This document shows, piece after piece, positions 14,318 through 45,814 of a DNA stretch of 64,000 bases. The DNA lies in assembly GCA_045654485.1 (NCBI GenBank), contig JAZONN010000023.1, positions 23,305 to 87,304 of the forward strand, written 5' to 3'. Source of the stretch: Candidatus Enterousia sp. Its GTDB lineage: Bacteria; Pseudomonadota; Alphaproteobacteria; Rs-D84. The position numbers and the translations under genes were made by a program. Positions within the stretch are counted from its first letter, which is position 1; each line of letters begins with the position of its first letter. Under the pieces are notes generated by a model. That model was not told the origin of the DNA, made no database searches, and was given only the letters and a program-made list of their open reading frames with translations.

Positions 14318-14342
14318 AAATCGGCATTATGCCGATTTTAAT
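14316..14342. terminator. Bidirectional terminator between convergent genes
   Basis: tcggca-ttat-gccga with A-run and T-run flanks. Confidence 0.5.
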
Positions 14343-15042
14343 TTTTAAAATATTTTGATTTTTGTTGTTGTGATACTGTGTACATAGTATCGAATTTGGC
14401 ATCGGCCGCAGATTGCGTTGTTGGGGCATTTGTAGAGGTATAGTTATAATCGGCGCCATTTAATACGATTATATAATCCGGTGAGATATTGGTTCCGCAA
14501 TCCAAGTAATATTTAGACGGGTCATAATATTTGCCATAACATTTACCGTTTTCAACCGCCGCATAACCGTATTCGGCCAATTGGGTACAGGTTGGTTGTG
14601 TGCCATATGTAATTTCGCCATTATCTAAGAATTCGTCAGGGTTATCCAATATGCCCGAACACCATACATTTACGTATTTGCCGTTAAGGGATGCGATTGT
14701 GCCTCCTTCGGCGGTTTTGCGACGTCCAAAGCAGGCGTCGTTGGCGGATAATAGTGTTACATCAAAATCGGGGTTGATGTTTTTGCCGGCTGCGATGTCG
14801 TTGCGTCCCATTGCGACGGGTTCGTCAGATGGTGTTTTAATCGCATCCGGACAGATTAATTTCATGCCCCAGCACTTTGCATTATCGTCCCACATTTGTG
14901 CATCAAATCCGGTACCCATTCCACGATAACAATCAGATGGATTTAATTTGCATACCGTTGGTTGGTCCCACCAAGGCGTTGCGGCGTTTGCGCCACATGT
15001 ATAGAATAGTAATGCGGTAAAGATTGATATATTTTTTTTCAT
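14338..15042 (-). CDS. Secreted Cys/Trp-rich hypothetical protein
   Basis: 234 aa, signal peptide MKKNISIFTALLFYTCGANA, 14 Cys; 57 bp downstream of the 786-aa gene on same strand. Confidence 0.5.
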   Translation of the reverse strand: MKKNISIFTALLFYTCGANAATPWWDQPTVCKLNPSDCYRGMGTGFDAQMWDDNAKCWGMKLICPDAIKTPSDEPVAMGRNDIAAGKNINPDFDVTLLSANDACFGRRKTAEGGTIASLNGKYVNVWCSGILDNPDEFLDNGEITYGTQPTCTQLAEYGYAAVENGKCYGKYYDPSKYYLDCGTNISPDYIIVLNGADYNYTSTNAPTTQSAADAKFDTMYTVSQQQKSKYFKN

Positions 15043-15099: not shown

Positions 15100-17460
15100 T
15101 CATGCGTTGCTGGGTGTTTCTTCTTCTTTTTGTGTGTCTTGTTCGGTTGATGTGTTGTTGTCTGTTGTTGGTGGTGTCTGACAGTATCCCCATGCCGTGT
15201 GTGCAGATGTTTGATCATAGAACAATTTGTACCGTGTTGTGTTGGTTGTGTCTGTTGGTGTGCTAACCCAAATTCCGCCCAAACGTTCACATTCTTTTGA
15301 TAATTCCTTGGCCATTTTTACACGTGTGTCGTCCATTACTTTGTTAATATCTTGCAATACTGTTGCGGGCAGGTTTTTGCCGGATTCGCTTGGGCGGACG
15401 CAGACCTGTAATGCGTATTTTGATAATTTTTGATATAAGCTGCCGATATAATCGTCGCCGCATCTGTTGTTGTTTGGTGCTTGTTGTGTGGCACAATCAC
15501 CTACTGTGATGGCTTCTGGTTTTGCTTTTTCGCCGGCGCATTCATAACAGTCGGGGCATGGTTTGCATGTGTTTCCGTATTCTGGGGTGGCGTTATATTC
15601 ACCCATATAGGACAGGTAATATCCCGGGGCGCACGATGTGTATTTGAATTCGATTTCACATGTATAATCGCCATATTGGGTGTTTGTGTTGGTTGTGCCT
15701 GTATTAATAGGGCCTGATAATTGGCCGGTTTGTGTTTGTAAAATACACCATATGTCTGTTGAATATTGATGTGACCCGGGGGAGTATGTGCGGCACCCAT
15801 ATGGTGATGTGTGTAGTGTGTCGTTGCTGGGGACAGCGCACAAATCTTGGGCATATGCGGTTAAAGCTTCGACGCATTGTTGGCCGATTTGCTGGTCGGT
15901 TATATTGTGCATAGTTGCCAATAATTCGTTTAGACCACCGGGGCCGCCGCCGTATAGATTGCTACATGCGTCTAATTTTTCTTGGCACAGTTGTTCGGAT
16001 AGTTCCAAACGTGCGCCTAATAACAATTTTTCGTCTGTATTTGAGAAGTCCTTTAATGATTGATTTTTTTCGTCATAGCATTTATTTACAACTTCAAGGC
16101 ATTCGTTTTTAACCTGACGAATTCTATCTTGTTGACCTTGATAAATTTCTGTTACGGCTTGGCGCATAAATTCATCCCAAACCATGTCGGATATGTCACG
16201 GCATGTATCCAATCCACGTTTGGCATATATGCGTTTGTCGGATAAGTTTGCAACCAGTAATCGATTGGTTTCATTGGTCAAGATGTCGCCAGATAATGAT
16301 ATTTGATATCCCAATTGATAGAATTCGGGACTGTATATCGGTTCGCCTGTTGTAATATTAAGGTATAATCCGGTGATGTCTAAGCAATGTACATAATTTG
16401 GACCGCATGCCGTGTCGGCGGTTATGTCTTGGCGAACCTGGGCAATGCATTGATGGATGTCGGAAGAATTGTGGTTGTTGTAATTTTCTAATCGTAATCC
16501 CTGTAATTCTTTGCCGGCGATACGGATTGCATTGTTTGCATTATTTTTTTCTTGGTTTAATGAATTTAATAGCAGATTACAATCATTTTCGATATACATT
16601 CCATATGCCGATGTAACCATTGTTTGTATGGCATCTGTTGGGCATTGGCTGATTGCCATCTGGGCGCATTGTGCATGTACAGCGTTGTACAACGCTTCGC
16701 CAGATAGTTCGGCAATATTAACGCCCCCCATCAAACCGGTGGTCGACCATATCGTGTCAATTGTGCCGGCGATGTCAACGGTGCCTTGGGTGGATAATGA
16801 TTGTTTTTTTGTTTTAGATAATATTGCACTTATGCCCGATAATTCAGATGTGGCGGTGGAAGAATCTTTCATAAAAGTTTGCTGATTTTCACCAGCGGTT
16901 CCTTTTATCATCGCATTTACTTCTGCGGGTGACTTATCGACAACAGTTAATTGTAGATCCCGAAAATCTTGCAATTGGTTGGATGTATTGCCCAATGCAC
17001 GCTCACGATTTTGGATTTCATAAATTTTAGATGAACATGTGCATCTACGGTATTTGGTGTCTAATGTGCCACAAAACTGATCCATGCATGTAAAGTATGC
17101 GTCACGACATGTGTTATAGTCCGCATTAAATGTCTCAGAAGGTTGGGCGAATACATTTATTGTGGCACGTGCGGTTGCTCTTTTTTGTGTTGGGGTGCCG
17201 TTGTGTGCAGATGTGGTTCGGGTGGCGGTGCCACGTGCGGTTGTTGCCGAACGAGGTTTGGTCGCTGTGCGTGCATTTGTTGAGTTGCGAAATGTTTGGG
17301 TTATTGTGCGTGGTGTTGTCGAACGTGCATTTGTCGCCGTGCGTGCAACGGTTGTAGATTGTGTGGCAGGACGTGAGATGGTTTTTGCATTACGTTCAGC
17401 GGCGTTGACACTGCCAACACCGGCGATTAACGCCATAATGAAAAATAGTATCCTATCCAT
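15100..17460 (-). CDS. Giant secreted Cys-rich protein, family member (N-module YNTCRDAYFTCMDQFCGTLDTKYRRCTCSS; R/T-rich linker)
   Basis: 786 aa; signal peptide; linker TARTATNARSTTPRT…; LYNAVHAQCAQMAISQC… module aligned with paralogues. Confidence 0.65.
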   Translation of the reverse strand: MDRILFFIMALIAGVGSVNAAERNAKTISRPATQSTTVARTATNARSTTPRTITQTFRNSTNARTATKPRSATTARGTATRTTSAHNGTPTQKRATARATINVFAQPSETFNADYNTCRDAYFTCMDQFCGTLDTKYRRCTCSSKIYEIQNRERALGNTSNQLQDFRDLQLTVVDKSPAEVNAMIKGTAGENQQTFMKDSSTATSELSGISAILSKTKKQSLSTQGTVDIAGTIDTIWSTTGLMGGVNIAELSGEALYNAVHAQCAQMAISQCPTDAIQTMVTSAYGMYIENDCNLLLNSLNQEKNNANNAIRIAGKELQGLRLENYNNHNSSDIHQCIAQVRQDITADTACGPNYVHCLDITGLYLNITTGEPIYSPEFYQLGYQISLSGDILTNETNRLLVANLSDKRIYAKRGLDTCRDISDMVWDEFMRQAVTEIYQGQQDRIRQVKNECLEVVNKCYDEKNQSLKDFSNTDEKLLLGARLELSEQLCQEKLDACSNLYGGGPGGLNELLATMHNITDQQIGQQCVEALTAYAQDLCAVPSNDTLHTSPYGCRTYSPGSHQYSTDIWCILQTQTGQLSGPINTGTTNTNTQYGDYTCEIEFKYTSCAPGYYLSYMGEYNATPEYGNTCKPCPDCYECAGEKAKPEAITVGDCATQQAPNNNRCGDDYIGSLYQKLSKYALQVCVRPSESGKNLPATVLQDINKVMDDTRVKMAKELSKECERLGGIWVSTPTDTTNTTRYKLFYDQTSAHTAWGYCQTPPTTDNNTSTEQDTQKEEETPSNA

Positions 17461-17876: not shown

Positions 17877-17909
17877 AGGTCCTAAGGAAATTGTATGTAG
17901 GTGGTGCAC

Positions 17910-20198
17910 ATGATATTAAGAATTTTTGCAACTGTTTTGGCTTTGGTTCCAGGTGTGGCGTTTTCCGCTGTGCGTGGTGAAGATGCGCGTGTAAGTGTTC
18001 AGCGTGTGTCTATGGCGGGGGTTCGTGGTCCCAATATTTCTAAGACATTGCATACGTCGTCTGGTGTTGATGATGTTGTGAAAGACGATGTATCTGGTGA
18101 TAATTCAGATGCGGGTGATGATGTCGGTGGTGATTCGGGCGGTGGAAATACCGATGGTGGTGATTCTAGTGGCGGTAATGATTCTGGTAACGATAATGAA
18201 ACTGGGGATGGTTCCGGTGTTGTTGGTGGTTTGTGTGATCGTGAAATGTATCGAACTTGCATGGATGAATTTTGTTTGATGGATGAAAGTGATGGTGGAC
18301 GTTGTTCTTGTTCGGATAATATCTATGCGGCAGATGCGATTGTTGCAGAGATTCAATCGATTCAATCCAAAGCGGATAAAATGTACACCGAACAGGTTGA
18401 ACGTGAAAAGTTGGGTGCAAACGCTGATTATATTTTTGAGGCAAATGAAACAGAAGAAGTGGTAGCTCAGAAAAAAAGTTTTAGTTCCAGCGATTTGTTG
18501 GCTGATATTTTTGCAACAGATGTTTTGACGGATGAAGAAGAAGTTGTGACACAGTCGCCAGATTTGTCTGCAGATGATATGATTGGTGATGTGTTGTATA
18601 ATAGTGCATATGAATATTGTTCGTCGTCTTATTTGGGGGCGTGTACATCTGCGGTTCGTAATGCGGAAACTATGTTGTATTCTCGTTCGATTACGGCGGA
18701 TTGTAAGGCGTATGATTCTTATTTGGCAGATCAAAAGCGTACAGCCGAAGCCAATGTAAAGACGGCCGAGGCGGCGGTTCGTGCTGCACGTTTGTCTGTG
18801 TTCGGTTCGACAAATAAGTACAATCGTGGTGAATGCTTGTTGGCGTATCGTTCGTGTATCGCAGATAAAGGTGGCTGCGGGACGCATTTTGAAAATTGTT
18901 TGAGTGATTCTTTATTGTCACGTCGTGCAAATGCATGTGAAGATATCTTGAATCAATGTGTGGCAGTTCGTGCCGATGTTGAAAAAGATTGGAAAGAAGA
19001 AAAAGAAATGGTGTTGAATGATGCTGCAAAATTTGCATCACGTAATGCACGTCAGATGTGTTTGGCAAATATGCAGGCCTGTTTAGAAGATAATTGTTCG
19101 ATTGCGACAAATTCTGATTGTTTGGGTAATGTTGATGTTGCGATGAAAATCTGTCCGGTTAGTGAAATTTGTGTTGTTCAATTGCCTGGTACATCAGATG
19201 CGGTAAAAATTAGCGGATTATGGGGTGGGGCATCCGAAATAGAGTTTGAAAATACATTAAAAGTGCCAATTCAAAATAAATTGAAATACCTGCGTACGAA
19301 ATTCTGTCAAAATGATGTTTCAAAATGTTTGCAGGAAAAATGTGGTGCGGACTTTACAGCGCCGGAATGTTTGGGCAAGAAATCATCGGCTTTGGTTGCA
19401 ATGTGTCCACAAAATTCAATCTTGTCTTGTGCAGGGGTTAGTGGTTCTGACTTTGAATTGTTGATTAGTTCTGCGACATTGAAAATGGACTATCAAATTA
19501 TGCAGGGTTGTATAAATCATTTTGGTGAACAATTGGGGCGTGTTTGTGGTACGGATATGTCTTGTTTACCATCTGATGATATTGTTATGGGGATGTCTGA
19601 AATGCCAGAAGACATTGTGGCTGCTCGTAAAGAATTGATTAAAAGAACACAGAAAAGTGTTGAATCGTTCTTTAAGGATTTTGAAAAGGATAAGACGATA
19701 GAGGCCTGTGCGTCTTTGGATGGGGCTTTGGGTGACAAAGTATTTATGAGTGCACGTAAGGTTGCAGAAATTGGTGCAGAAAATCGTGCGTTGCGTCAAT
19801 TAGAGGATAAAATTGCAGAACTGTCACGTAAACAGGATTTGGCCAAAGCCGAAGCAAATTGCTATGCAATGTATGCTGTTGAAACACCGGATGAATCGGA
19901 AAAGAATTATAGCTATATCCGTAGTGTAGTGTTTGAGCCGGATTTGCGCAATTGTCATGTATGCCGTATGCAACAGGTTTGTGAAGAAGGTGGTGAATCT
20001 AAATGGACGTCGGCATTAAAGTCGGCTGCGGGCGGTTTGACAGCGGGTGCATCGGCGGGCACTATGATTTCTCCGGGGTGGGGGACCGCAATTGGTGGTG
20101 TCGTTACCGCGGTAGGTGCCGGTATAGTCGGGGCGCAGGCCGGTGGAAAAGAGGATTTCTGTCAAGAAATCGAAAGTTGTGAAGACGTAAATATGTAA
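17910..20198 (+). CDS. Giant secreted Cys-rich protein, family member (D/G/S-rich acidic linker; N-module LCDREMYRTCMDEFCLMDESDGGRCSCSD)
   Basis: about 762 aa from ATG 17910; signal peptide MILRIFATVLALVPGVAFSA; about 45 Cys; C-terminal Gly-zipper-like hydrophobic segment. Confidence 0.65.
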   Translation: MILRIFATVLALVPGVAFSAVRGEDARVSVQRVSMAGVRGPNISKTLHTSSGVDDVVKDDVSGDNSDAGDDVGGDSGGGNTDGGDSSGGNDSGNDNETGDGSGVVGGLCDREMYRTCMDEFCLMDESDGGRCSCSDNIYAADAIVAEIQSIQSKADKMYTEQVEREKLGANADYIFEANETEEVVAQKKSFSSSDLLADIFATDVLTDEEEVVTQSPDLSADDMIGDVLYNSAYEYCSSSYLGACTSAVRNAETMLYSRSITADCKAYDSYLADQKRTAEANVKTAEAAVRAARLSVFGSTNKYNRGECLLAYRSCIADKGGCGTHFENCLSDSLLSRRANACEDILNQCVAVRADVEKDWKEEKEMVLNDAAKFASRNARQMCLANMQACLEDNCSIATNSDCLGNVDVAMKICPVSEICVVQLPGTSDAVKISGLWGGASEIEFENTLKVPIQNKLKYLRTKFCQNDVSKCLQEKCGADFTAPECLGKKSSALVAMCPQNSILSCAGVSGSDFELLISSATLKMDYQIMQGCINHFGEQLGRVCGTDMSCLPSDDIVMGMSEMPEDIVAARKELIKRTQKSVESFFKDFEKDKTIEACASLDGALGDKVFMSARKVAEIGAENRALRQLEDKIAELSRKQDLAKAEANCYAMYAVETPDESEKNYSYIRSVVFEPDLRNCHVCRMQQVCEEGGESKWTSALKSAAGGLTAGASAGTMISPGWGTAIGGVVTAVGAGIVGAQAGGKEDFCQEIESCEDVNM

Positions 20199-20220: not shown

Positions 20221-22704
20221 ATGCGTAAGAATAGTTTTTTGTTTGTGTGTTTGTGTTGTGCACTGGGGTTTCTCCCAGTGCATAATGCGTTTTCGGCCAC
20301 GCCAAAGAAGGCGGTAAAGCAATCTGCAATTCAAAAAGGAACATCGGTTCGTGTGAAAAGCGAAGCCGTCGGTATTTATGATGAAGATTGTTATAGCGCA
20401 TATTATGGATGTATGGATCAGTTTTGTATTTCAGATAATGAAAGCGGTGGTAGTTGTATTTGTAGCGATGCGTATGCCGGTTATGAGGCGCAGTTAAATG
20501 CAATCAAGGAACAGTTGATTGAAGCAGAACGCATTTCAACGGTCGAGGTTGAAAAAGTAAAGGCAGGTGCCGATGCTGATATTATTTTTACCGGACAAAG
20601 ACAGTATGATAAAAAGGGAAATCTTTTAAGTTTAGATGAAGTAGAAGGTAAAAAATCTGTTGGATTATTGGCTTTGTGGGATGATGCCGTCGAAGAGGAA
20701 GAGGGAGACGAAGATTACGATTCCATTTTCTATGGTGATGATTTGGATGGTTTGACCGGTAATGCTTTGCATAGTGCAGCCCAAGAATTATGTGTTGCGC
20801 AGTTGCCAGATAAATGTGAAGGTGATGTCAGTTTGTTGGCAAGTATGTATTCACGACAGATTGTATCTGACTGCAAGGGTTTGGAAAATAGTTTGCTTCA
20901 AAAACAGGCGACCGCTGATTTGGAAATGTCAAAGGCTGAATCGGCTGTGCGTGCCGCTTTACAGGAAAGTTTAAGCGAATCCAACAAATACACTTTGGGT
21001 GAGTGTATGGTTGAATTCAAAAAATGTATGCGTGGGGCGGATGCATGCGGTACCGATTGGGAACATTGTGTTGGTCAGGTTGCCAGTGAAAATATGCAAA
21101 AATCTTCTTTGCGTGGTAAATCGTATGGTTCAAAGTCGGCATATAATATTACCGAATCTACGATGGAGACATTAGAGGCAAAACGACCAATTTGTGAACG
21201 TGTTCTGTCCAGTTGTGTTGCCGTGCGTGATAATGTGTGGCCGTCGTTCTTAAAGGAAGTGGCACCAACAATTCAATTGGCCGAATCACACATTGAATCG
21301 CGTTTCCGTCAAAGTTGTTTAACGGATATTTCAAATTGTATACATACCGCATGTAAAGATGATATTGCCGGAAAAGGTGTTGCGACAATGGATTCGTGTT
21401 TGGCATATCCGGAAATGGCACGCAGTTTCTGTAAAGTTGAATTGGAACCATGCGAAAAAATGGAACCATTAATTTGGAACTATGTGACCGATAAATTGGC
21501 GGCTATGCGTGTGGATGCATGTACGCAAGAGGTCAAAGATTGTTTTACACATGAATCCAGATGTGGGGAAAATTTCCAGAATTGTATCGGTATTGATTTT
21601 GAACATATCCATGATATGTGTCCGGTTGACAGTTTGGTTGTCTGTAAACAGGGAAATCAGGATTTCAATTTGGATGATTTAGACAAAATGTTGATGGGGC
21701 TGTATTTGAATATCGATACAACCTTGGCGGACCAATGTCAGGAAATTGTTGATAATAAAATGATGGAGATTTGTGGCAGTACAACAGATTGTAACAAATT
21801 TGCATCCGATGATACGATTGGTACCGGTTCTTTGCGTTCACAAAAAGATGGTATCGTGTATCGTTTGACGGGGATGATATCATTTGGTTCTATTCAGGTT
21901 GGTAATGCCAGTGACTATGACCCAAAATCCAGTATTTCAAATCAATTAAAGCCCGGCGAAATTGGCGTGGCAGAATATCTGAAAAAGATTAAAGAGGTAA
22001 ATTCAGATGTGCCAAACCATGAAGGTATTATTTCGGCGATTGAAGAAGAATTGAATAATATCGCGGGTACGATTAATCGTACGATTGAAATGATAGAGCA
22101 GGATCAAAAAATTCAGCACTGTATCCATGGCCGTAATTTAGAGCAGGTTACAGGTGATAAAAAGGATGTTACCACGGGACGTTTCCCAAATCTGTTGAAT
22201 CAAATAAAGATGCAGATTGCGGTTGCGGCTTTGCGTCAGGCCCAAGATAACTATAATGCCAAATGGAACGAAATGTTGGCGGCGGCAAACCATGATGCGT
22301 CTGCGGACGTGGCGCAGTATATGTGTCAAAAAATGGCAGAAAATGCCGCCACCACTTTGACCACTCAAACAAATGGTTTGACACCTCCGTATGCCATCAG
22401 TTATGAAGTTGGGTCGGGATTAAATGTTAATGATTTAACCATTGGTGGACATTCTGTGACCGATTTGGGGCAGACCACTTATAAAAATGATGGCTATCTG
22501 GGGAAATCCAGTGGTACATTTGGGGCTGGTACCAAAGAAACCACGGCGACATTTAATCGTGAAGCCAGAGTTTGTCATTTGTGCACTACGATTATTACCC
22601 AGTCGTGTAAAACAACGGGCAGTAAATCTTGGTTCCATAATAACAGAAATACGTCTTGTACAACTGCGGAACCAATCCAGAAGTGTGAAGATATACCAAT
22701 GTAA
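20221..22704 (+). CDS. Giant secreted Cys-rich protein, family member (N-module EDCYSAYYGCMDQFCISDNESGGSCICSD)
   Basis: 827 aa; 22 bp after the preceding paralogue (co-transcribed); RBS agagagag. Confidence 0.65.
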   Translation: MRKNSFLFVCLCCALGFLPVHNAFSATPKKAVKQSAIQKGTSVRVKSEAVGIYDEDCYSAYYGCMDQFCISDNESGGSCICSDAYAGYEAQLNAIKEQLIEAERISTVEVEKVKAGADADIIFTGQRQYDKKGNLLSLDEVEGKKSVGLLALWDDAVEEEEGDEDYDSIFYGDDLDGLTGNALHSAAQELCVAQLPDKCEGDVSLLASMYSRQIVSDCKGLENSLLQKQATADLEMSKAESAVRAALQESLSESNKYTLGECMVEFKKCMRGADACGTDWEHCVGQVASENMQKSSLRGKSYGSKSAYNITESTMETLEAKRPICERVLSSCVAVRDNVWPSFLKEVAPTIQLAESHIESRFRQSCLTDISNCIHTACKDDIAGKGVATMDSCLAYPEMARSFCKVELEPCEKMEPLIWNYVTDKLAAMRVDACTQEVKDCFTHESRCGENFQNCIGIDFEHIHDMCPVDSLVVCKQGNQDFNLDDLDKMLMGLYLNIDTTLADQCQEIVDNKMMEICGSTTDCNKFASDDTIGTGSLRSQKDGIVYRLTGMISFGSIQVGNASDYDPKSSISNQLKPGEIGVAEYLKKIKEVNSDVPNHEGIISAIEEELNNIAGTINRTIEMIEQDQKIQHCIHGRNLEQVTGDKKDVTTGRFPNLLNQIKMQIAVAALRQAQDNYNAKWNEMLAAANHDASADVAQYMCQKMAENAATTLTTQTNGLTPPYAISYEVGSGLNVNDLTIGGHSVTDLGQTTYKNDGYLGKSSGTFGAGTKETTATFNREARVCHLCTTIITQSCKTTGSKSWFHNNRNTSCTTAEPIQKCEDIPM

Positions 22705-33661: not shown

Positions 33662-33821
33662 GTATAATTCCCTCGGCATGAATGCCTGCGGGGCAACCGT
33701 GACGATTTCGCGGTACGATGTTTGCGAAATCTACTTGTTGTCCCATTGGGTATATGTTGTTGGTTGGGCCCCTTTCACTTCGCATACGCTACGTTCCGAA
33801 CCGGTCGGTTCTTCGTCCAAC

Positions 33822-33880
33822 CAGACCAAAATAAAAATCCCCAAAAAGGGGATTTTAATTCTGGTGGCCCTGGTCGGACT
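33822..33880. repeat. 59-bp direct repeat copy B (overlaps authentic 3' end of tRNA-Leu and its terminator)
   Basis: identical to 33603-33661; contains terminator aaaatcccc-aaaaa-ggggatttt. Confidence 0.85.
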
Positions 33881-33946
33881 CGAACCGACACTCCTTGCAG
33901 AACTTGATTTTGAGTCAAGCGCGTCTACCAATTCCGCCACGGGGCC
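33862..33946 (-). tRNA. tRNA-Leu (anticodon CAA), class II with long variable arm
   Basis: Minus strand GGCCCCGTGGCGGAATTGGTAGACGCGCTTGACTCAAAATCAAG…GTCGGTTCGAGTCCGACCAGGGCCACCA; anticodon loop CTCAAAA; one C-A mismatch in acceptor stem; encoded CCA. Confidence 0.8.
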
Positions 33947-33963
33947 GTGGCATTGAAAACCAA

Positions 33964-34332
33964 TTATGCGGCTTTCTTTGCTTCAACTTTTTTGACCAAG
34001 CGTGCGCTGCGGTTTGCTTTGTGTGCAGGTTTTTTCGCAGGTGCTTCTGGTTTCCCAGCTTTCTTTTCAATGGCTTTTTTAATTGCAGCCATTTCTTCGG
34101 TCAAACGTGATACAGGTTTTGACATTACATATGCGTCCAAACCACCGTGTTTGGTCAATGTACGCAGACCAGCGGTTGAAATGCGCAATGAAAAATCACG
34201 TCCCAAAATATCACTGTGGAACTTTAATGTTTGTAGATTTGGCAAGAACGTACGTTTTGTACGACGATGAGAGTGGGATACGTTCATCCCAACTTCTGTT
34301 TTCTTACCTGTAACTTTACATACACGTGGCAT
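33964..34332 (-). CDS. rpmB: 50S ribosomal protein L28 with long K/A-rich C-terminal extension
   Basis: MPRVCKVTGKKTEVGMNVSHSHRRTKRTFLPNLQ… typical L28; aaagg RBS; extension …KKAGKPEAPAKKPAHKANRSARLVKKVEAKKAA. Confidence 0.85.
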   Translation of the reverse strand: MPRVCKVTGKKTEVGMNVSHSHRRTKRTFLPNLQTLKFHSDILGRDFSLRISTAGLRTLTKHGGLDAYVMSKPVSRLTEEMAAIKKAIEKKAGKPEAPAKKPAHKANRSARLVKKVEAKKAA

Positions 34333-34417
34333 AATAGTTTTACCTTTATTAATAGCGAACGCTAATTTATAACAAAAATATATAAAAGTCAAGCATTGTT
34401 TTTATATTTTTTGTTTT

Positions 34418-35845
34418 TTAATTTTTATGCGATGGTTTTATCAGGTCTGATATGACTTTGACCGGTGTAAATGTGGTTAATGGCGTTTCCACAAATACGG
34501 TGTTCCAATTAGCCATTGCGCCATTCCACAGACCGGGACGTTCCATTGCGCGCAGTGGGCGGCCACCGCTGCTTTTTTTGGAAATAAAGCCCGCGCGTTC
34601 GTCGATAAAGTTTAATAAATTAAAACGGTTTCCCATATAATCGCGTGGCATACATACTATGTCTGTGGGGCTGAAAAATTCGCCACGTTTTAATATGTCT
34701 ATGTTGTCGGGGGCAATTTGTGCGGGTTCTACGATTTGCAATCCCAACAATCCATTTTTGTCGCGTACCCAAAATGGGCCACCGCCCGGTTCGCCGGTGT
34801 TTTTAATGATGCCACATATGCGTAGTGGTCGATTAAGAATGTCACGGACATTTGTGTCAGCGTTTGTTTTTATGCCCAATGTGGTATCGATGAAGTTGCG
34901 AATTTCGTTTGTGTCCGCCGTGTCATTGTCCAGCGCACGCATGTAATCAAAAATTTGCGTTTGGATTTGCATTGCCAATCCCGCCAAGGCGCGTTTGTGA
35001 TAAATCGTGTCTGCACGTGCCGATTCGGGGCATACGTTATCGATGTTTTTGATAAATATAATATCTGCATCAATATTGTTCAGGTTTGCAATTAATGCGC
35101 CGTGACCTGCGGGACGGAATAATAATTTGCCGTCATCTGTTCTGAAGGGGGTGTTGTCCAAATTCACCGCGATTGTATCGGTCGATGGCTGTTGCGTGGA
35201 CATTGTGATATTGTATTTTACCGATAAAGCCGATTCGTATTGTGGGATAATTTCGGCCAAATGCGTGTTAAATCCATCTATGTGTTCGGGTGATACGGTA
35301 AAGTGTATATTGACCATGTCATTGGATTTTGCGTATTGTGCGCCTTCGATTAAATGTTCGGCCAATGCGGTACGGTTAAAGCCGTCGTATTTGTGGAATT
35401 GTAATAATGCTTTTGGCAGGTTGCCATAGTTTATACCGGCGTCCGTTACCAAGTGTTTGATTATATCCATGTTTGATGGGTTTTCGGGCAGGGTGGCACG
35501 CAAATCATCGTAAAATGCGAATTGTTCCAGATTTTCCAATACCAATTGGGTGGTTTTATTCATTTCGCCGGTTGTCATATATTCAAACAGGTCTTTGAAC
35601 ATTCGTGTGGCCGCGCCGGATGCGGGGACGAACTTTACAATATTGTATTTGTCTTGATTGCGTGTGTAATGTTCAACCCAGTTGTTGTCCAACATAGGTC
35701 TGATGCCGTGGTTGATTGTGGCGGCGGATTCTATGTCAGAATATGGAAAGCCGGTTTCAAAATCGCGCAGTTGACGATTTACAATGTCCAAGGTTAATTC
35801 GTGATTTTCAATTTGTTTGATATCAGATTCAGAAAAGTATGACAT
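34418..35845 (-). CDS. Conserved hypothetical protein (about 475 aa, possibly DUF4301-like)
   Basis: aaagga RBS; no catalytic motif recognised with confidence. Confidence 0.45.
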   Translation of the reverse strand: MSYFSESDIKQIENHELTLDIVNRQLRDFETGFPYSDIESAATINHGIRPMLDNNWVEHYTRNQDKYNIVKFVPASGAATRMFKDLFEYMTTGEMNKTTQLVLENLEQFAFYDDLRATLPENPSNMDIIKHLVTDAGINYGNLPKALLQFHKYDGFNRTALAEHLIEGAQYAKSNDMVNIHFTVSPEHIDGFNTHLAEIIPQYESALSVKYNITMSTQQPSTDTIAVNLDNTPFRTDDGKLLFRPAGHGALIANLNNIDADIIFIKNIDNVCPESARADTIYHKRALAGLAMQIQTQIFDYMRALDNDTADTNEIRNFIDTTLGIKTNADTNVRDILNRPLRICGIIKNTGEPGGGPFWVRDKNGLLGLQIVEPAQIAPDNIDILKRGEFFSPTDIVCMPRDYMGNRFNLLNFIDERAGFISKKSSGGRPLRAMERPGLWNGAMANWNTVFVETPLTTFTPVKVISDLIKPSHKN

Positions 35846-35934
35846 GGGAAAATCCTTTGGTATATGTCACTTGGTTTTATCTTATTATAATTTAGACGGC
35901 ACTGCAAGGAATCCTTTGGTATTCGTTCCTGTGT

Positions 35935-35963
35935 CTTGAAAGGCGGGTTTGTGGCACTATATA
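35935..35963 (+). promoter_or_regulatory. RpoH (sigma32)-type heat-shock promoter CTTG-N18-CTATATA upstream of clpB
   Basis: CTTG 35935-35938, 18-nt spacer, CTATATA 35957-35963; fits alphaproteobacterial sigma32 consensus CTTG-N17-18-CYTATNT. Confidence 0.4.
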
Positions 35964-35996
35964 TAGGTAAAAGTGAAAATTTAAGGAGTGTCAGAA

Positions 35997-38054
35997 ATGA
36001 ATCCAGATGATTTACAAGAAACGCCACAACAGGCAATTGAAAAATATACGACTGATTTTACCAAGTTGGCCGCCGATGGAAAATTAGATCCGGTTATTGG
36101 TCGTGATGAAGAAATTCGTCGCGCAATTCAGGTGTTAAGTCGTCGTACAAAAAATAACCCCGTGTTAATCGGTAATCCGGGGGTTGGTAAAACGGCTATT
36201 GTCGAAGGTTTGGCGAATCGGATTATATCGGGGGATGTGCCGGAAAACTTGTTGAAAAAGCAATTGTTGTCTTTGGATATGGGGGCATTGATGGCGGGGG
36301 CGTCTTTCCGTGGCCAATTCGAAGGACGATTAAAGGCGATTTTAAAGGCCGTCAAAGATGCAGACGGTAAAATTGTTCTGTTTATTGATGAATTGCATAC
36401 TTTGGTTGGTGCCGGTAAAGGCGAAGGCAGTATGGATGCCGCCAATTTGTTAAAACCGATGTTGGCGCGTGGCGAATTGCATTGCTTGGGTGCGACTACG
36501 TTGGATGAATATCGTCAATATATTGAAAAAGATCCTGCGCTGGCGCGTCGTTTTCAGCCCGTTTATGTTGATGAGCCGACAGTTGATGATACCGTTTCGA
36601 TTTTGCGTGGATTAAAAGAAAAATACGAAGGTCACCATGGTGTGCGAATCGCGGATGCGGCGTTGGTGACGGCGGTAAAGTTGTCTAACCGTTATATTAC
36701 AGACAGATTTTTGCCCGATAAAGCAATTGATTTGATTGATGAAGCGGCGGCGCGTGTGCGCATTGAAATTGCATCAAAGCCAGAACGTTTGGATGAAGTC
36801 GACAGGCATTTAATGCAATTGAAAATAGAACAACAGGCATTGAAAAAAGAAAAAGATGATGAATCCAAAAAACGCTTAAAAGATTTGGAAAATATTATCG
36901 CCGGTGTTGAAGCAGAATCAAAAAAGTTAACCGCCGATTGGCAGGCAGAACAGCAAAAAATGCGTGGACTGTCCGATGCAATGGCGGCATTGGATGCGGC
37001 CAAGGCGGAAGTTGCAACTGCTATGCGAAATGGTGATTACGAAAAGGCGTCTGCATTGCAATATGGTAAAATTCCACAATTGGAAGATGATATTCGTGCT
37101 ATGAACGAAAACGCGCGTGAATATAAAACGGTGTTGCCGGAACATATTGCCGCAGTTGTTAGTAAATGGACAGGCGTGCCCGCCGACCGATTGAACGCAG
37201 AAGAGCAATCAAAATTGTTGAATATAGAAGATGCGTTGCGTAAACGTGTTGTTGGCCAAGATAATGCATTGGGTGTGGTGGCGCGTGCAATTCGTCGTTC
37301 CCGTGCGGGGTTAAGTGATCCACGTCGCCCATCGGGCAGTTTTATGTTCTTGGGGCCAACCGGTGTTGGTAAAACCGAAGTGGCCAAAGCGTTGGCGGAA
37401 TATCTGTTCAATGATGATATGGCAATGACACGAATTGATATGAGTGAATATATGGAACCGCATTCTGTATCCCGTTTAATCGGCAGTCCCCCGGGGTATG
37501 TCGGATATGAACAGGGCGGGGTGTTAACCGAATCTGTTCGTCGTCGGCCATATCAAGTATTGTTGTTCGATGAAATCGAAAAGGCGAATCCGGATATATT
37601 CAATGTCTTTTTGCAGATATTGGATGATGGGCGTTTGACAGATGGCCAAGGTCATGTGGTGAACTTTACGAACACTATCATTATCATGACCAGTAATTTG
37701 CCCGATATGGATGCGGTAAAGAAACATTTCAGACCCGAATTTATTAATCGTGTTGATGATATTGTGTTCTTTAACCCGTTGGGCAAGGATGTTATGGCCG
37801 ATATAGTCAAGATTCAATTGGCCGGTTTGAAAAAACGTCTGGCGGAACGTCGTATCGGTATCAATATAACGGATAAAGCCATTAAATGGTTGGGGGATAA
37901 TGGCTATGATGCTGTATTTGGCGCGCGCCCATTGAAACGCTTAATCACAACCGCCGTAGAAGATAAAGTTGCAGATTTGATTTTGTCTGATGGCGTTGGT
38001 GAAGGTGGGACGGTATATGTTGATGTCAAAGGTAAAGAGTTGACCGTTGGATAA
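35997..38054 (+). CDS. clpB: Chaperone ClpB (disaggregase)
   Basis: ATG 35997 with aaggag RBS; two AAA+ modules ([16 protein letters not shown]), middle coiled-coil domain, sensor motifs. Confidence 0.95.
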
Positions 38055-38056
38055 TA

Positions 38057-38086
38057 AAAAATGTCGCCAAATGGCGACATTTTTTG
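38057..38086 (+). terminator. Intrinsic terminator (tgtcgcc-aaat-ggcgaca + T5); same hairpin family as 41351-41378
   Basis: read directly. Confidence 0.6.
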
Positions 38087-38135
38087 TGCGTTGTGTTTTA
38101 TTGAAAACAATGTTGTAGAAATAAATATAGTTGTG

Positions 38136-38333
38136 TGTTATAATATGTGTGTTGTCGGGTGTTTCGACAATGGGGTGTGAGAACCTCTGCCACAGTGTCC
38201 GAATCGTTCGGATAAAACCTTCTGACCATTGGTCAGGAGGGTCGCTAAATATATTGAATAAGTGACACGATTCTGTGGATTGTTCTCAACCTCCTGGCCA
38301 CCTGAATTTGGTGGTTTTTTGTTTGGAGGTATT
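38136..38333 (+). promoter_or_regulatory. Extended -10 promoter (TGTTATAAT) and about 180-nt structured 5' leader ending in a terminator-like hairpin (ccacc-tgaattt-ggtgg + T6, 38298-38320) 14 nt before the start codon
   Basis: TGnTATAAT at 38136-38144; hairpins ccgaa-tcg-ttcgg, ctgacc-att-ggtcag; the segment gagaacctctg could pair alternatively with ggttgagaaca region (antiterminator-like). Confidence 0.3.
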
Positions 38334-41300
38334 ATGCGTTCGTTTGTGCTGATTTTGTCGATTGTTTTGTACGGTATGCCCGTGTTGGCGGCTGCGCCTG
38401 CGCAACGTCGTGCCGTTGGGGTGGCGCGTGCGGCACGAACGACGTCGGTTGCGACGCGTGGGACATCGCGCGCAAGTACTGCGACATCGGCACAATCTGT
38501 GTCGGCGCCGTCTGTGGTGGCGCGCGCGGGGGCCAAACAAAGTGTTGTTGGGACCGGTACAAAAGTTGCCGCGGCGGTCGTAAATCCTGTGTCTGGCAGT
38601 GAGTGTGGTGTTAAATTTAATGGTTGTATGGATTCGTTTTGTATGCTGGATAATATCAGTGGTGGTCGTTGTATATGCAGTAACAAAAAATCAGAATTGG
38701 ATGAAATTTTAACTGAAATTGAACGATTGGACGCACAATCATATCGTTTGGCAACGATTGGTGTGGATCAATTGCAAATGGGCGAACATGCGGATCAGGC
38801 CGTTGCAAATGTGAACAAAGCCACGGGCGCAACGCGTGATGTGCAGACGCGTGGAAAATTGGATTTGTCGTTGTGGGACACCCAGACGGACAGTGGTGAT
38901 GGTGCGGATTTTTCGACGTCTGGGATAATAGATAAAACCGGGGCGGAATTATATAATTCTGCGGTGGAAGTTTGTGCGGCCCGTATGCCCGAATGTGCCA
39001 CAAATATAGATTCGTTAAAATTGATATATAATCAGTATATTAAATCGGATTGTATGGCATATGAAAACGCATTAAAGAAACAAAAAGCGGCCGCCGATAA
39101 AAAGATGGCGACCGCGCAAAGTGCAATGCGTATCGCGGCTTTGGATAAAATTCATCAGGCCAATAAATACGATTTGGGGCAATGTACAATTGAATTTACC
39201 GAATGTATGAAAACAACGGCGGAATGCGGTGCGGATTTTTCAAAATGTGCAACAATGTCTGCTTTGGATTCCACCAACAGCATGGAAAAGTCAACCGCCA
39301 AACCAAAGATTCATGGAATTAAAACGGGCGTTGCGGTAATTGAAATTCAAGCGACGACGTATGATGCTTTGTTTGCGAAAAAGCCATTGTGTGACACGAT
39401 TTTGAAATCGTGCGATGCGGTTGCGGATAAAGTTTGGGATGCGTTTTTGCGTGCCAATGCGCCACAAATAAAAAATGCCGAATTAATTGCGGAAAATACG
39501 ATGCGTCAAGAATGTATTGGGCGTATATCGGATTGCTTTGCCAAAGGGTGTAAAGATAATATTGACCCAAAAGATCCCGATGGTTCGTATGATATGTGTT
39601 TAACCCGTCCGGAAACAATGCTGTCGGTTTGTAAAGTGCCGTTAAATTCGTGTGGTGTTGATGCGTCGAATGTTGAATTGGCGGTTGCGTCACCAATATG
39701 GAACTTTGTTGTTGACCGTTTGGCATCAATGCGCGTTGATTCATGCACTAAACAGGTTAAAGAGTGTTTGACCGGTGAAGGCAACTGTGGTGAAAATTAT
39801 GCGAATTGTGTTGGGTTGGATACGGATACGATTGTTCGTATGTGCCCATATGATAAATTGGTCGGATGCCAAGAAAGATATCGTGATATCGATATTCACG
39901 GTGATGAAGTGTATGATGAATTGGCGACGATGGTTCGTGGTTTGATGATTAATATAGACAATGAAATGTTAACGCATTGCCAAAAAGCATTGGATGAATC
40001 TATGTTGCGCGTATGTGGTGCGACGGATAATTGTGATGCGGTCGTGTTTGGTGGTAATGCCGATTTGGGCGCAGGATCTTTGGATTATGGGATTTGTAAT
40101 ATTTATGCCAATGATGACGGTGGTTTGGTGTTGGATGAAGGTGTGTGTCGTGCAGATGCGTCCATGGTGACAGATGGTGAATTGGGGTATAAGGGAACGC
40201 CGGTGCCAATGGTGGGAATGATAAGTGGGCAGATATATTGGGGGATGATTGAACATGATGACAAAGGGCATTTGACGGATGCGCAGACATTTTTAGATAT
40301 GATTGCGGATGATGAAGTTAAAATGTCAGAGAAACAGCAACAGCGTATATCGAAAGAAATAAATGCATTGCAACATAATGTTGATAGCGCAATAACAATG
40401 GTTGAATCCGATACAACGGTTCAATATTGTATGACGGGGCGTTTGGTTCCTGGGGCAAAAATATTTGAAGGTCAAACACCGCGTTTTCCCGAATTAACAA
40501 AATCGGTTCGTAAATTAATTGCGTCGCATGCATTAAAAACGGCGAAGGATAATTATGGAAAAAAATACGATGAAATAACCACCCAAATGTTGCAAGATCA
40601 GGCGACTATAGCGGAACGTTATGCCCAGATAGAGGGTAAAAATGCGCGTGATGCCCATCGTGAAATGGCGCGAAAATCATGTATTGCATTGGCGCCAATG
40701 TCTGCGGTGCCACGCAGTGCCGAACCGCCAAAAAATATGTGGGGAACTGTGATTGTTGTGGCGGCTATTGTGATTGCGGTTGTTGTGGTGTCTGTTGTCA
40801 CTTTTGGGGCGGGGGCTGCGCCGGCGGGGGGGGCGGGGGCTACGGGGATCAGTGCTCTTCTTTCCTCTGCGGCATCGGCGACAGTAGGGGCGGCGGCGGC
40901 GTCTGCGGCAACGGCGGCGGGGGCGGCGGCATCTGCATCTGTAATTGCGGCAGGTGGGTCGACAATTGCAGCGTTTTCGGCTATGATGTCTGCTGGGATG
41001 ACTGCTGGGATGGTGGCTGGATATGCTACTGTGGCTGCGGGGGCGATTGTGGGTGCGGGATTGGCGGCTGGTGGTGTTGCCGGGGCGGTTGCGATGGGAC
41101 GTGCAGCCAATACTTCGGTAAATGACGCGCCGCGTTTTTACACCGAAGCCGATTTGAAAGGTACATATGAATTAAAGCAATGGAATTATCGTGAAACGGT
41201 TGAAACAAAGTTTGATGTGGATACATTTGTGTGTGAAAAATGTGTCACAACACAAAATTGTTCCGATCCACGTAATCCTATGTTCGGGAACAAGAATTGT

Positions 41301-41348
41301 AAAAAGTGGGGCAAAAAGAAAACAACGTGTTCCGATATTCAATTCTGA
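38334..41348 (+). CDS. Giant secreted Cys-rich protein, family member (N-module SECGVKFNGCMDSFCMLDNISGGRCICSN), with TM helix and about 130-aa Gly/Ala/Ser-rich hydrophobic region near C-terminus
   Basis: ATG 38334 after ggagg RBS; signal peptide MRSFVLILSIVLYGMPVLAAAPA; R/T/A-rich linker; modules aligned with 765/827/786 paralogues. Confidence 0.65.
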   Translation: MRSFVLILSIVLYGMPVLAAAPAQRRAVGVARAARTTSVATRGTSRASTATSAQSVSAPSVVARAGAKQSVVGTGTKVAAAVVNPVSGSECGVKFNGCMDSFCMLDNISGGRCICSNKKSELDEILTEIERLDAQSYRLATIGVDQLQMGEHADQAVANVNKATGATRDVQTRGKLDLSLWDTQTDSGDGADFSTSGIIDKTGAELYNSAVEVCAARMPECATNIDSLKLIYNQYIKSDCMAYENALKKQKAAADKKMATAQSAMRIAALDKIHQANKYDLGQCTIEFTECMKTTAECGADFSKCATMSALDSTNSMEKSTAKPKIHGIKTGVAVIEIQATTYDALFAKKPLCDTILKSCDAVADKVWDAFLRANAPQIKNAELIAENTMRQECIGRISDCFAKGCKDNIDPKDPDGSYDMCLTRPETMLSVCKVPLNSCGVDASNVELAVASPIWNFVVDRLASMRVDSCTKQVKECLTGEGNCGENYANCVGLDTDTIVRMCPYDKLVGCQERYRDIDIHGDEVYDELATMVRGLMINIDNEMLTHCQKALDESMLRVCGATDNCDAVVFGGNADLGAGSLDYGICNIYANDDGGLVLDEGVCRADASMVTDGELGYKGTPVPMVGMISGQIYWGMIEHDDKGHLTDAQTFLDMIADDEVKMSEKQQQRISKEINALQHNVDSAITMVESDTTVQYCMTGRLVPGAKIFEGQTPRFPELTKSVRKLIASHALKTAKDNYGKKYDEITTQMLQDQATIAERYAQIEGKNARDAHREMARKSCIALAPMSAVPRSAEPPKNMWGTVIVVAAIVIAVVVVSVVTFGAGAAPAGGAGATGISALLSSAASATVGAAAASAATAAGAAASASVIAAGGSTIAAFSAMMSAGMTAGMVAGYATVAAGAIVGAGLAAGGVAGAVAMGRAANTSVNDAPRFYTEADLKGTYELKQWNYRETVETKFDVDTFVCEKCVTTQNCSDPRNPMFGNKNCKKWGKKKTTCSDIQF
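40795..41100. repeat. GC-rich low-complexity (GCG/GGC-rich) coding repeat region encoding poly-Ala/Gly/Ser hydrophobic segment
   Basis: runs such as gcggcggcggcgtctgcggcaacggcggcgggggcggcggc; local GC far above window mean. Confidence 0.5.
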
Positions 41349-41350
41349 TA

Positions 41351-41378
41351 AAAATGTCGCCGTGTGGCGACATTTTTA
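41351..41378. terminator. Bidirectional intrinsic terminator (atgtcgcc-gtgt-ggcgacat)
   Basis: A-run upstream, T-run downstream; near-identical stem to 38057-38086. Confidence 0.55.
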
Positions 41379-41600
41379 TTTAGATTTTGTACGGGACAAT
41401 ATGCTTAATAATGCGCATATAGTATCCGACCATATAGATGGTTCGTTTAGCATACGTTCTTCGCGTATGGTCGCATATGCCAATTTGTCGTTGATGTAAC
41501 GTTGGCTTTCTGAAATGCTGGCGTCCATTGGTGGACAAATATCTATTGAACGAAGATTTTGCATGATAATCCTTTGTTTTGTGCCGATTCGTTTCGTGGA

Positions 41601-42560
41601 TTATACCACTTCTGTCACAGCACGCAAGGCCCCGTCACGTGATAATTGAACAACACGGATTTTTTTCTTCATTTCTGAAATAAGGTCGGCCCGATCGTAT
41701 GCCGGTTGGGTGTGTAATATGCGGTCGGCAAATGCAGCATAGGCGGCTTCGGCACTTTCGGCGTGGATTGTGGTATAAAAATGTTCGTGGCCCGTGCCCA
41801 GCATTTCCCATAAAACGGATGCGTTGTCGGTTGATATTTCACCGCCTATAATCACGTCTGGGGTCATACGAACAACCAAATCCAATAGACGTGCATAATT
41901 AAAGTCGTTTGTTTGTTCTGTTCGTGATAAAACAAAGTGAACCCGATTCGCCTGTGGGACACGGATTTCACGTGCGTCTTCGACCGTGATGACACGACTG
42001 TTTTTATCAATCAATGTCAGCATATGATTTAAAAACGTTGTTTTTCCTGTTGCGGTTGCGCCGCTTATTAAAATAGGACTGCCGTCATTGATGGCGGTCA
42101 TTAAACGTTCGTATGGGTCGTCGGGACGTTCTTTTAATCTTGGGTTTACTTTTAATAATTCTTGGCCGCGTTTTAGGTGATAGTTTTCAAAACTTGTGCT
42201 GGGGGCGCCACCACCACGTATATTCATTGCCACGCCACCCGTTACATCGTTTTCGTCGTATTGTACGTTTGGGCCGGCAATGGCGGTAAAACGATGATTG
42301 CCGGGTAATGTTGCGTAAACCACCGGTATGCCATGAACCGGATTAAATGGGCGTTCATAGATGTTGGCCACAGTATGTATTAAATCGACCAAATATTGTT
42401 TGCTTAAATTTTCGGCCTTGTATGAAACCCAAGGAATACGTGCGCCGTGTAGGCGCATCCATACTTCGCCGGCGTGATTTATGGCGATTTCTTCTACGAA
42501 CGAAGGTTTGTAGAATTCTTCCAGTGGTTTTAATAAAGATTCAAGTACGATGTTTGCCAT
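41601..42560 (-). CDS. VirB11/TrbB-family secretion ATPase (P-loop NTPase), lone copy
   Basis: Walker A GATATGKTT, size about 320 aa, N-terminal …IAINHAGEVWM… and His-box region typical of VirB11; start assumed at ATG 42560 (ORF track uses upstream TTG 42596). Confidence 0.7.
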   Translation of the reverse strand: MANIVLESLLKPLEEFYKPSFVEEIAINHAGEVWMRLHGARIPWVSYKAENLSKQYLVDLIHTVANIYERPFNPVHGIPVVYATLPGNHRFTAIAGPNVQYDENDVTGGVAMNIRGGGAPSTSFENYHLKRGQELLKVNPRLKERPDDPYERLMTAINDGSPILISGATATGKTTFLNHMLTLIDKNSRVITVEDAREIRVPQANRVHFVLSRTEQTNDFNYARLLDLVVRMTPDVIIGGEISTDNASVLWEMLGTGHEHFYTTIHAESAEAAYAAFADRILHTQPAYDRADLISEMKKKIRVVQLSRDGALRAVTEVV

Positions 42561-42637
42561 TGTGTTGATTTTATCATAAATCCTGACTTGAATCAAAATA
42601 GTTTATTTGTTAGAATAAAAAAAAAGAGAGAAAGAAT

Positions 42638-45734: not shown

Positions 45735-45814
45735 AGTTGAGGTGCTTTTTCTGCTTTACATGGATTGCACAAAAATCGTATAATAATAGCATATTAATAA
45801 AGAAGGAAAATTAT

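Follow-up and report, generated by a model that had tools for sequence, protein, structure and literature searches.

The gene at 38334-41348 (forward strand) of a 64,000-nucleotide stretch of Candidatus Enterousia DNA (contig JAZONN010000023.1; hereafter the window) encodes a Cys-rich protein of 1004 residues, which carries close to its C-terminus a long, uncharged hydrophobic tract of small residues. Candidatus Enterousia is listed under the Alphaproteobacteria and is placed in order Rs-D84 of the Genome Taxonomy Database. Over 6.6 kb, the window shares 98% identity with a contig labelled Candidatus Enterousia sp. The current analysis shows that one orthologous group carries, at this site, a conserved yet highly length-variable hydrophobic element. 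The comparison of alleles and orthologues supports the view that the length of the tract varies on an evolutionary scale, with a signature of repeat slippage. The reading that we favour, with a probability of roughly 0.45, is that the tract acts as a hydrophobic anchor embedded in the membrane, an expandable loop or hairpin set between two disulfide-rich parts of the protein which lie on the same side of the membrane.

The maximal open reading frame (ORF) opens at a GTG codon (38262..41348, forward strand) and would give 1028 amino acids, the length reported in an initial annotation of this DNA. We prefer the shorter product of 1004 residues because the orthologues and an identical public entry begin at the ATG at 38334, from which residue numbers are counted throughout. 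The structure prediction of the protein with AlphaFold2 (AF2) used 100 aligned sequences, and its confidence is given as the predicted local distance difference test score (pLDDT). The protein is organised as follows.

38334..41348, forward strand: coding sequence, 1004 aa from ATG 38334, stop codon at 41346-41348; the identical 1004-aa public entry is P0121.
38334..38393, forward strand: predicted Sec signal peptide MRSFVLILSIVLYGMPVLAA (hydropathy scan and sequence reading; cleavage site inferred).
38394..38588, forward strand: basic, GC-rich, low-complexity region of Arg, Ser, Thr and Ala, residues 21-85; AF2 pLDDT below 50 (about 30).
38589..40733, forward strand: Cys-rich, mostly alpha-helical domain, residues 86-800, with 33 Cys; AF2 pLDDT mostly 75-95.
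40740..40808, forward strand: strongly hydrophobic helix WGTVIVVAAIVIAVVVVSVVTFG, residues 803-825 (Kyte-Doolittle window of at least 1.6).
40809..41099, forward strand: uncharged Ala/Gly/Ser/Thr/Val tract, residues 826-922, 97 aa (composition; AF2 pLDDT below 50, no secondary structure).
41121..41345, forward strand: C-terminal beta-sheet module, residues 930-1004; AF2 predicts six strands at a pLDDT of about 86-91.

The N-terminus, MRSFVLILSIVLYGMPVLAAAPAQ, contains no Cys and hence no lipobox Cys of a lipoprotein signal. The N-terminal module GCMDSFCMLDNISGGRCICSN, the LYNSAVEVC motif and the C-terminal Cys module ending in F, all quoted in the initial annotation, were found in the protein; the C-terminus reads ...CEKCVTTQNC...CKKW...CSDIQF. 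In our alignment of the family (A1), C783 is invariant and ends the helical domain about 20 residues before the hydrophobic helix, and the five conserved Cys of the C-terminal module (C967, C970, C976, C989 and C999) are likewise invariant. Between the two modules, AF2 gives residues 802-927 a pLDDT below 50 and no secondary structure. The basic region near the N-terminus (38394-38588) is found in several paralogues and is missing from the lineage of P0003-P0005; it also gives rise to spurious minus-strand ORFs at 38138-38686 and 38286-38540.

The ORF, the transmembrane helix and the Ala/Gly/Ser tract near the C-terminus are thus real features of sequence and hydropathy. The tract is shorter than first reported: instead of 130 residues it measures about 97, or 120 together with the helix, and the interval to which it had been assigned (40795-41100) encodes 102. 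Over residues 803-922 (120 aa) there is not one D, E, K, R, H, N or Q, against 34% such residues elsewhere in the protein. With one flanking residue the uncharged run reaches 121 aa, the longest among the window ORFs of at least 150 aa; the next-longest, in the paralogue at 17901-20198, has 38 aa. Ala, Gly, Val and Ile account for 88 of the 120 residues (73%). The tract begins with a Pro/Gly turn, continues as an Ala/Ser-rich spacer and ends in a Gly-zipper-like part of about 47 residues. GxxxG pairs are enriched in these last 47 residues alone (5 against 1.8 expected, P about 0.009, uncorrected); over the entire tract they are not (P = 0.22), and we therefore rejected a glycine zipper running along the whole tract.

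At the DNA level the tract is GC-rich in AT-rich surroundings, as originally noticed, with 64% GC compared to 44% in the remaining gene and 41% in the window. The excess is mostly due to the Ala (GCN) and Gly (GGN) codons, while third-position GC is raised moderately (0.525 in the tract against 0.40) and GGG makes up 13 of the 21 Gly codons. The description of the tract as GCG repeats overstates how repetitive it is: Tandem Repeats Finder (TRF) reports imperfect runs only, namely (GGGGCG)x5.8 at 72% matches, (GGC)x14 at 74% and a 12-nt unit x2.3 at 93%. The DNA of the tract is weakly repetitive. The features that bear on its variation and annotation are the following.

40826..40833, forward strand: G8 homopolymer inside the tract, also G8 in the closest strain.
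40889..40930, forward strand: imperfect (GGC)14 run (TRF), site of one 12-nt indel relative to the closest strain.
40980..41020, forward strand: 12-nt (4-codon) tandem repeat encoding AMMS/AGMT/AGMV (TRF), site of a second 12-nt indel relative to the closest strain.
40679..41125, forward strand: spurious overlapping ORF in another frame, 148 aa, Cys/Gly-rich, wholly within the conserved gene, which has more than 800 homologues.
40619..41110, reverse strand: spurious antisense ORF, 163 aa, Ala/Pro/Thr-rich, wholly within the conserved gene.

Each 12-nt unit encodes four residues including one Gly, so that the gain or loss of a unit changes the count by one GxxxG step. The two spurious ORFs exist because the GC-rich stretch is poor in stop codons, in agreement with the earlier view of the tract as a source of overlapping ORFs. 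An assembly artefact was rejected as the origin of the tract, since it occurs in independent assemblies, namely the 180-kb NCBI contig of the window and the closest strain (L001 in NCBI, L002 in ENA). A second G8 run of the window lies at 11354-11361, within an ORF of 1238 aa.

The gene belongs to an unnamed and uncharacterised family of Candidatus Enterousia (Rs-D84). More than 800 homologues of 900-1030 aa were found, exclusively in Enterousia or in alphaproteobacterial metagenome-assembled genomes (MAGs) from the gut, and all are annotated as 'hypothetical'. Searched against 1.84 billion proteins, a profile of the family retrieves 998 representatives (clustered at 50% identity). The window protein scores 1331 bits against the family hidden Markov model (HMM) and shows the family signature throughout: the N-terminal module C-M-D-x-F-C...G-G-R-C-x-C, about 33 conserved Cys, and a C-terminal module of five Cys with an aromatic or hydrophobic end. 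Searches of Pfam and NCBIfam gave no meaningful family for the full protein, its paralogues or 48 orthologues (E<=1), and Pfam gave none for the C-terminal 209 aa of the window protein at E<=10. A sequence-profile search of the PDB found no relative, and Foldseek found no match with E<0.3 in the PDB or BFVD; the levivirus-coat-like Foldseek matches to the C-terminal module were weak and not significant, and were set aside.

The orthologues place the tract in context. The segment that they carry from anchor PP[K..] to anchor QWNY[KR]E is 48-153 aa long, with a median of about 80 and 148-149 in the window protein. The hydrophobic segment is common to the orthologous group at the same site; therefore the tract of the window protein is an expanded version of it and not a private insertion, as had been proposed. 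In most orthologues the segment consists of two Ala/Gly stretches of weak hydrophobicity, FGKILAAVAVVGAAVAIPFTGG...AVAGIGLLGN, with a conserved PFTGG turn between them; PFT and one downstream Gly are conserved among the orthologues. The lineage of the window and a few others have a strongly hydrophobic first helix followed by a long extension of Ala, Gly, Ser and Thr, and long tracts recur in several separate branches. We scored 152 family members with a recognisable C-terminal module for the uncharged hydrophobic length upstream of that module. It was 0 aa in 18 of the 152, 15-30 aa in 15, 31-60 aa in 80, 61-90 aa in 24 and more than 90 aa in 15, and the C-terminal module and its Cys were kept in all of these length classes. 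For instance, a close paralogue of 928 aa in a related MAG (L062, 5776-8562) has no hydrophobic segment and a near-identical C-terminal module. That paralogue sits just past a stretch which is homologous to the 3' end of the window, and therefore the genome of the window may hold a copy just beyond position 64000.

We propose the following mechanism for the favoured loop or hairpin. The gene would code for an envelope protein of Candidatus Enterousia that is exported and rich in disulfides. In this family, a variable loop would separate the helical domain (up to C783) from the beta-sheet Cys module of about 75 residues; in this orthologous group the loop is hydrophobic and would serve as a membrane-embedded anchor. 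In the window protein, the helix at residues 803-825 would enter the membrane, the uncharged Ala/Ser/Gly spacer (about 826-875) would come after it, and the Gly-zipper-like segment (about 876-922) would bring the chain back, with both Cys-rich parts remaining on one extracytoplasmic side. The spacer would be under weak constraint in sequence and length; being coded by GCN and GGN, it contains the imperfect GGC, GGGGCG and 12-nt repeats that are expected to slip or to recombine unequally, and the resulting in-frame indels would lengthen and shorten the tract over evolutionary time. Which membrane holds the anchor, the even-pass or re-entrant hairpin topology, and a disulfide across the loop are elements of the model that we infer.

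Several observations are in agreement with such a topology. The C-terminal module is retained in members without any hydrophobic segment, and therefore probably works on the exported side. In 81 of 96 orthologues, 33 Cys precede the tract and 5 follow it, and these two odd counts fit one disulfide bridging the loop. The strong hydrophobicity of the first helix is in line with an anchor, the two-segment layout with a conserved turn in most orthologues backs a hairpin, and the enrichment of GxxxG in the last 47 residues would back a returning segment. Other observations weigh against it. The AF2 model of a short-tract orthologue predicts the first helix alone, at low confidence, and since confidence is low in both models the hairpin has no structural support. 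The returning segment is marginally hydrophobic, with sums of +2 to +4 on the Hessa scale, compared to a 19-residue sum of -4.1 for the first helix of the near-identical P0001 (simple sums, scale of Hessa et al. 2005). In some orthologues, such as P0096 (48 aa) and P0043, there is one segment only, and their topology would be flipped if the segments truly span the bilayer. Furthermore, the charges flanking the segments are not clearly positive-inside.

The same observations could be explained by a single-pass arrangement, which we regard as possible but unlikely. Here, the helix at residues 803-825 would act as a stop-transfer sequence and tie the exported Cys-rich domain to the inner membrane, the tract would be a flexible cytoplasmic linker, and the C-terminal module would be cytoplasmic, for instance as a metal-binding CxxC...C...C element. 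The first helix is very hydrophobic, the remaining tract is too weakly hydrophobic for an obvious second pass, AF2 renders it disordered, and the Lys-rich C-terminal module (KNCKKWGKKK) would suit the cytoplasm. On the other hand, the same five-Cys module is found in the members without a hydrophobic segment, where it is necessarily exported with the rest of the protein; the odd-plus-odd Cys counts suggest a disulfide across the tract; and a cytoplasmic linker of about 97 aa without a charged or amide residue would be unusual.

The comparison with the closest strain (L001/L002) provides insight into how the tract changes. The two are about 98% identical in nucleotide sequence over the gene and over an 8.4-kb block around it (33820-42200, i.e. 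33.8-42.2 kb), and 24 of the 26 gap columns of this block lie in the tract. Relative to the window, L001 has two 12-nt in-frame deletions, both in the tract and both at short repeats. The first maps to the imperfect GGC run, at ~40893-40904. The second, at ~40980-40991, falls within the 12-nt tandem repeat GCTATGATGTCT|GCTGGGATGACT|GCTGGGATGGTG, where one unit was lost and a hybrid unit was left, the signature of slippage or unequal exchange. Non-synonymous differences between the window and L001 amount to 2.1 per 100 codons in the N-terminal part (residues 1-802), 8.0 in the tract (residues 803-922) and 0 in the C-terminal part (residues 923-1004), so that non-synonymous change in the tract is about four times that of the N-terminal part. 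The tract is therefore not invariant among strains, and a length polymorphism of the kind that the initial annotation anticipated is seen in L001/L002. A scan of metagenome contigs with a degenerate pattern for further strains re-found the contig of L001 alone.

Recombination appears to act on the gene as well. A further allele (L003, 1053-3926) is a mosaic: over its 5' ~1.6 kb it matches the window at 97-100% identity, beyond that at 66-82%, and a different gene follows it downstream. Alleles that cluster at 90% identity with P0003 or with P0005 have a constant tract length, with dense substitutions and swapped segments. The mosaic alleles, L003 and those of the P0005 cluster, point to recombination. 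The earlier proposal of slipped-strand or recombinational length variation thus stands on an evolutionary scale, as far as the two 12-nt indels at repeats and the mosaic alleles are concerned; the comparison gave no evidence for rapid phase variation. On a larger scale, the 8.4-kb block spans clpB, this gene and a gene for a T2SSE ATPase, while its flanks are 83-92% identical to L001 (87% over 27.1-32.3 kb). Such a pattern points to a recent exchange between lineages of Enterousia by homologous recombination, or else to mosaic MAG contigs. In a separate observation, two contigs of one MAG (L004 and L062) stop at the same point in the gene, equivalent to 39968 of the window. These shared contig ends indicate strain or paralogue branching of the assembly graphs around residue ~545.

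Variation in the length of simple sequence repeats is known from contingency loci of bacterial surface proteins. The gene resembles such loci in that near-identical strains differ by indels at short tandem repeats in a coding low-complexity region, and in its G8 run; it differs from them in that the repeats are short and imperfect and the changes in-frame. We consider it very unlikely that the tract is itself a contingency locus, in which frequent and reversible frameshifts or length switches at simple repeats, the G8 at 40826-40833 above all, would toggle the C-terminal module or vary a surface epitope within a population. A slip of -1 at the G8 would give a product of 850 aa, with a basic tail immediately behind the helix as its end. 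The window and L001 share the G8, and the indels between strains are located at repeats. Among the 15 G/C runs of at least 8 that occur in 954 kb of related loci, 4 are located in orthologous tracts, against an expectation of 0.16. This enrichment is, however, a trivial consequence of GGG Gly codons. Moreover, both known alleles are in frame with G8 of equal length, every observed indel is a multiple of 12 nt, the repeats are short and imperfect, and neither of the two 90%-identity clusters shows a change in length.

Hydrophobic elements rich in Gly and Ala are known from other envelope proteins. The glycine-zipper 2TM hairpins of the outer-membrane lipoproteins SlyB, YfgH, OsmB and YiaD are short Gly/Ala-rich GxxxG helices in the membrane, which promote oligomeric packing (bioRxiv 10.64898/2025.12.22.696046). 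In a similar fashion, most orthologues of the window protein have two Ala/Gly stretches with a tight turn, and the paralogue at 17901-20198 has a conserved version of 59 aa. Unlike SlyB and YfgH, neither the window protein nor the 48 orthologues match a Pfam glycine-zipper model, the window protein has no lipobox, and its element lies near the C-terminus of a Cys-rich protein of about 1000 residues. In the window protein the element is expanded to 120 aa; its first helix is strongly hydrophobic, and its Ala/Ser spacer is not a glycine zipper. A C-terminal sorting signal of the PEP-CTERM, GlyGly-CTERM or LPXTG type was ruled out, given the confidently predicted beta module of 75 residues after the hydrophobic region. 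The anchor of an autotransporter or trimeric autotransporter was also rejected: there is no Pfam match, and the C-terminal module is small, Lys- and Cys-rich and without a Foldseek match at E<0.3.

The closest parallel in composition is found in CdzC and CdzD, the contact-dependent glycine-zipper bacteriocins of Caulobacter, in which glycine together with Ala, Val and Ile makes up 75% of the residues of the mature proteins (PMC5380434), compared to 73% in residues 803-922 here. The window protein shares with them its alphaproteobacterial origin, a probable surface association and a tract almost entirely of Gly and small hydrophobic residues. A surface-displayed, membrane-active or self-associating element of this kind is in our view a distinctly unlikely explanation of the tract. 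By aggregating on the cell surface, or by inserting into the membrane of a partner cell, it would help a partner-dependent bacterium to attach or to acquire metabolites. In its favour, GxxxG recurs in the last 47 residues, and other Cys-rich ORFs of the window also contain Gly/Ala stretches. The lifestyle of the organism would also suit it. Enterousia and other Rs-D84 members are widespread gut bacteria with genomes below 1 Mb, no respiration and a suspected partner-dependent lifestyle, and Enterousia lacks standard sugar, amino-acid and peptide transporters and is proposed to be cell-dependent (PMC12306168). However, Cdz proteins are small, have a bacteriocin-type leader, and are encoded alongside a type I secretion system (T1SS) and an immunity gene; the window protein shows none of these features. 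It has 1004 aa and a Sec-type signal, with no double-glycine leader and no adjacent T1SS, and its neighbours are ClpB, the T2SSE-family ATPase and an ABC_tran ATPase by an LptC-family gene; because it adjoins the latter, this ABC ATPase looks like LptB. In addition, the tract is internal to the protein, GxxxG is not enriched across all of it, no route across the outer membrane was identified, and no Pfam glycine-zipper or bacteriocin model matches. A more elaborate version, and the most improbable of the readings considered here, would make the protein part of a new kind of contact organelle, with the tract as its working end. The helical domain, stapled by disulfides, would form a stalk that presents an expandable glycine-zipper segment of Gly and Ala; this segment would insert into or aggregate on a partner membrane, and slippage at the poly-G and short repeats would give heritable variation in reach or specificity. 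If true, it would mean that a transporter-poor bacterium of less than 1 Mb could attach to, or tap, a partner.

Cys-rich envelope proteins are known from other bacteria with reduced genomes, such as the chlamydial OmcB and OmcA. The likeness, which is one of analogy only, lies in the abundant conserved Cys of an exported envelope protein of a host- or partner-dependent bacterium; the searches of Pfam, NCBIfam, PDB and BFVD detected nothing that the window protein resembles in sequence or fold. Several Cys-rich exported proteins of about 800-1000 aa, from an unannotated family, fill a noticeable share of a small genome, which makes a role in the envelope or in cell contact plausible. By itself the tract is of modest weight, being an expanded low-complexity membrane segment in an uncharacterised family. 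The slippage mechanism and the testable topology of the anchor nevertheless offer a handle for studies of localisation and for strain typing, and annotators should be aware of spurious ORFs, assembly breaks and mosaic contigs in this gene.

Four homologous members, including this gene, were detected in the window with the HMM and phmmer, rather than the at least seven implied by its original designation as a seventh paralogue. The other three are listed below.

17901..20198, forward strand: paralogue with a 59-aa Gly-zipper-like insert (HMM and phmmer).
20221..22704, forward strand: closest paralogue in the window, at 33% identity, without a hydrophobic segment before the C-terminal module.
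15100..17460, reverse strand: distant paralogue, with homology limited to the N-terminal half.

The initial annotation had raised the question of whether other paralogues hold cryptic versions of the tract, and the first of these does carry a related element at a different place. Its insert has a hairpin-like sequence, ALKSAAGGLTAGASAGTMISPGWGTAIGGVVTAVGAGIVGAQAGG (residues ~700-745), and lies between Cys3 and Cys4 of the C-terminal module, where the inter-Cys spacing of 59 aa is constant in 119 of 120 orthologues. Fixed in length and located at a different site, it is the opposite of the length-variable tract at 38334-41348; it indicates that hairpin-type hydrophobic inserts recur in the family, which also favours the loop or hairpin reading.

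The signals and genes around the gene are as follows.

38116..38144, forward strand: promoter-like site TAGAAA-17-TATAAT with an upstream TG (consensus scan, pattern match only).
41347..41380, forward strand: intrinsic-terminator-like hairpin and T-run, nearly identical to the hairpin that follows clpB at 38054-38087.
41601..42596, reverse strand: VirB11-like T2SSE-family ATPase, downstream.

Judged from these predicted signals, the gene is a single transcription unit between the promoter-like site and the terminator hairpin. The twin hairpins, AAAAATGTCGCC-N4-GGCGACATTTTT at 38054-38087 and 41347-41380, bracket the gene exactly, and these are the only two copies in the window, against 0.02 expected by chance. 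They may mark how the gene arrived after clpB, because the synteny with clpB is limited to the closest relatives. Flanking by ClpB and the T2SSE ATPase was likewise found in the closest relatives only, and synteny gives no clue to function. A functional link to the VirB11-like ATPase was dropped, as the adjacency is not kept beyond close relatives, and no other secretion-system genes were recognised near 41601-42596.

The window also encodes Cys-rich ORFs outside the family. Those at 3907-6564, 6595-8193 and 8210-9076, all on the reverse strand, showed no homology to the family with the HMM or phmmer, and further Cys-rich exported ORFs without detected family homology lie at 14338-15042 (reverse strand), 45737-47470 (forward strand) and 59024-59566 (forward strand). 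Disulfide-rich envelope proteins seem to be a heavy investment for so small a genome. Two of these six ORFs carry OmpA domains, and that at 3907-6564 also has a CarboxypepD_reg domain. The ORFs at 3907-6564 and 6595-8193 contain short Gly/Ala stretches, for example AAMLGSGLGIGVGAITSGAI.

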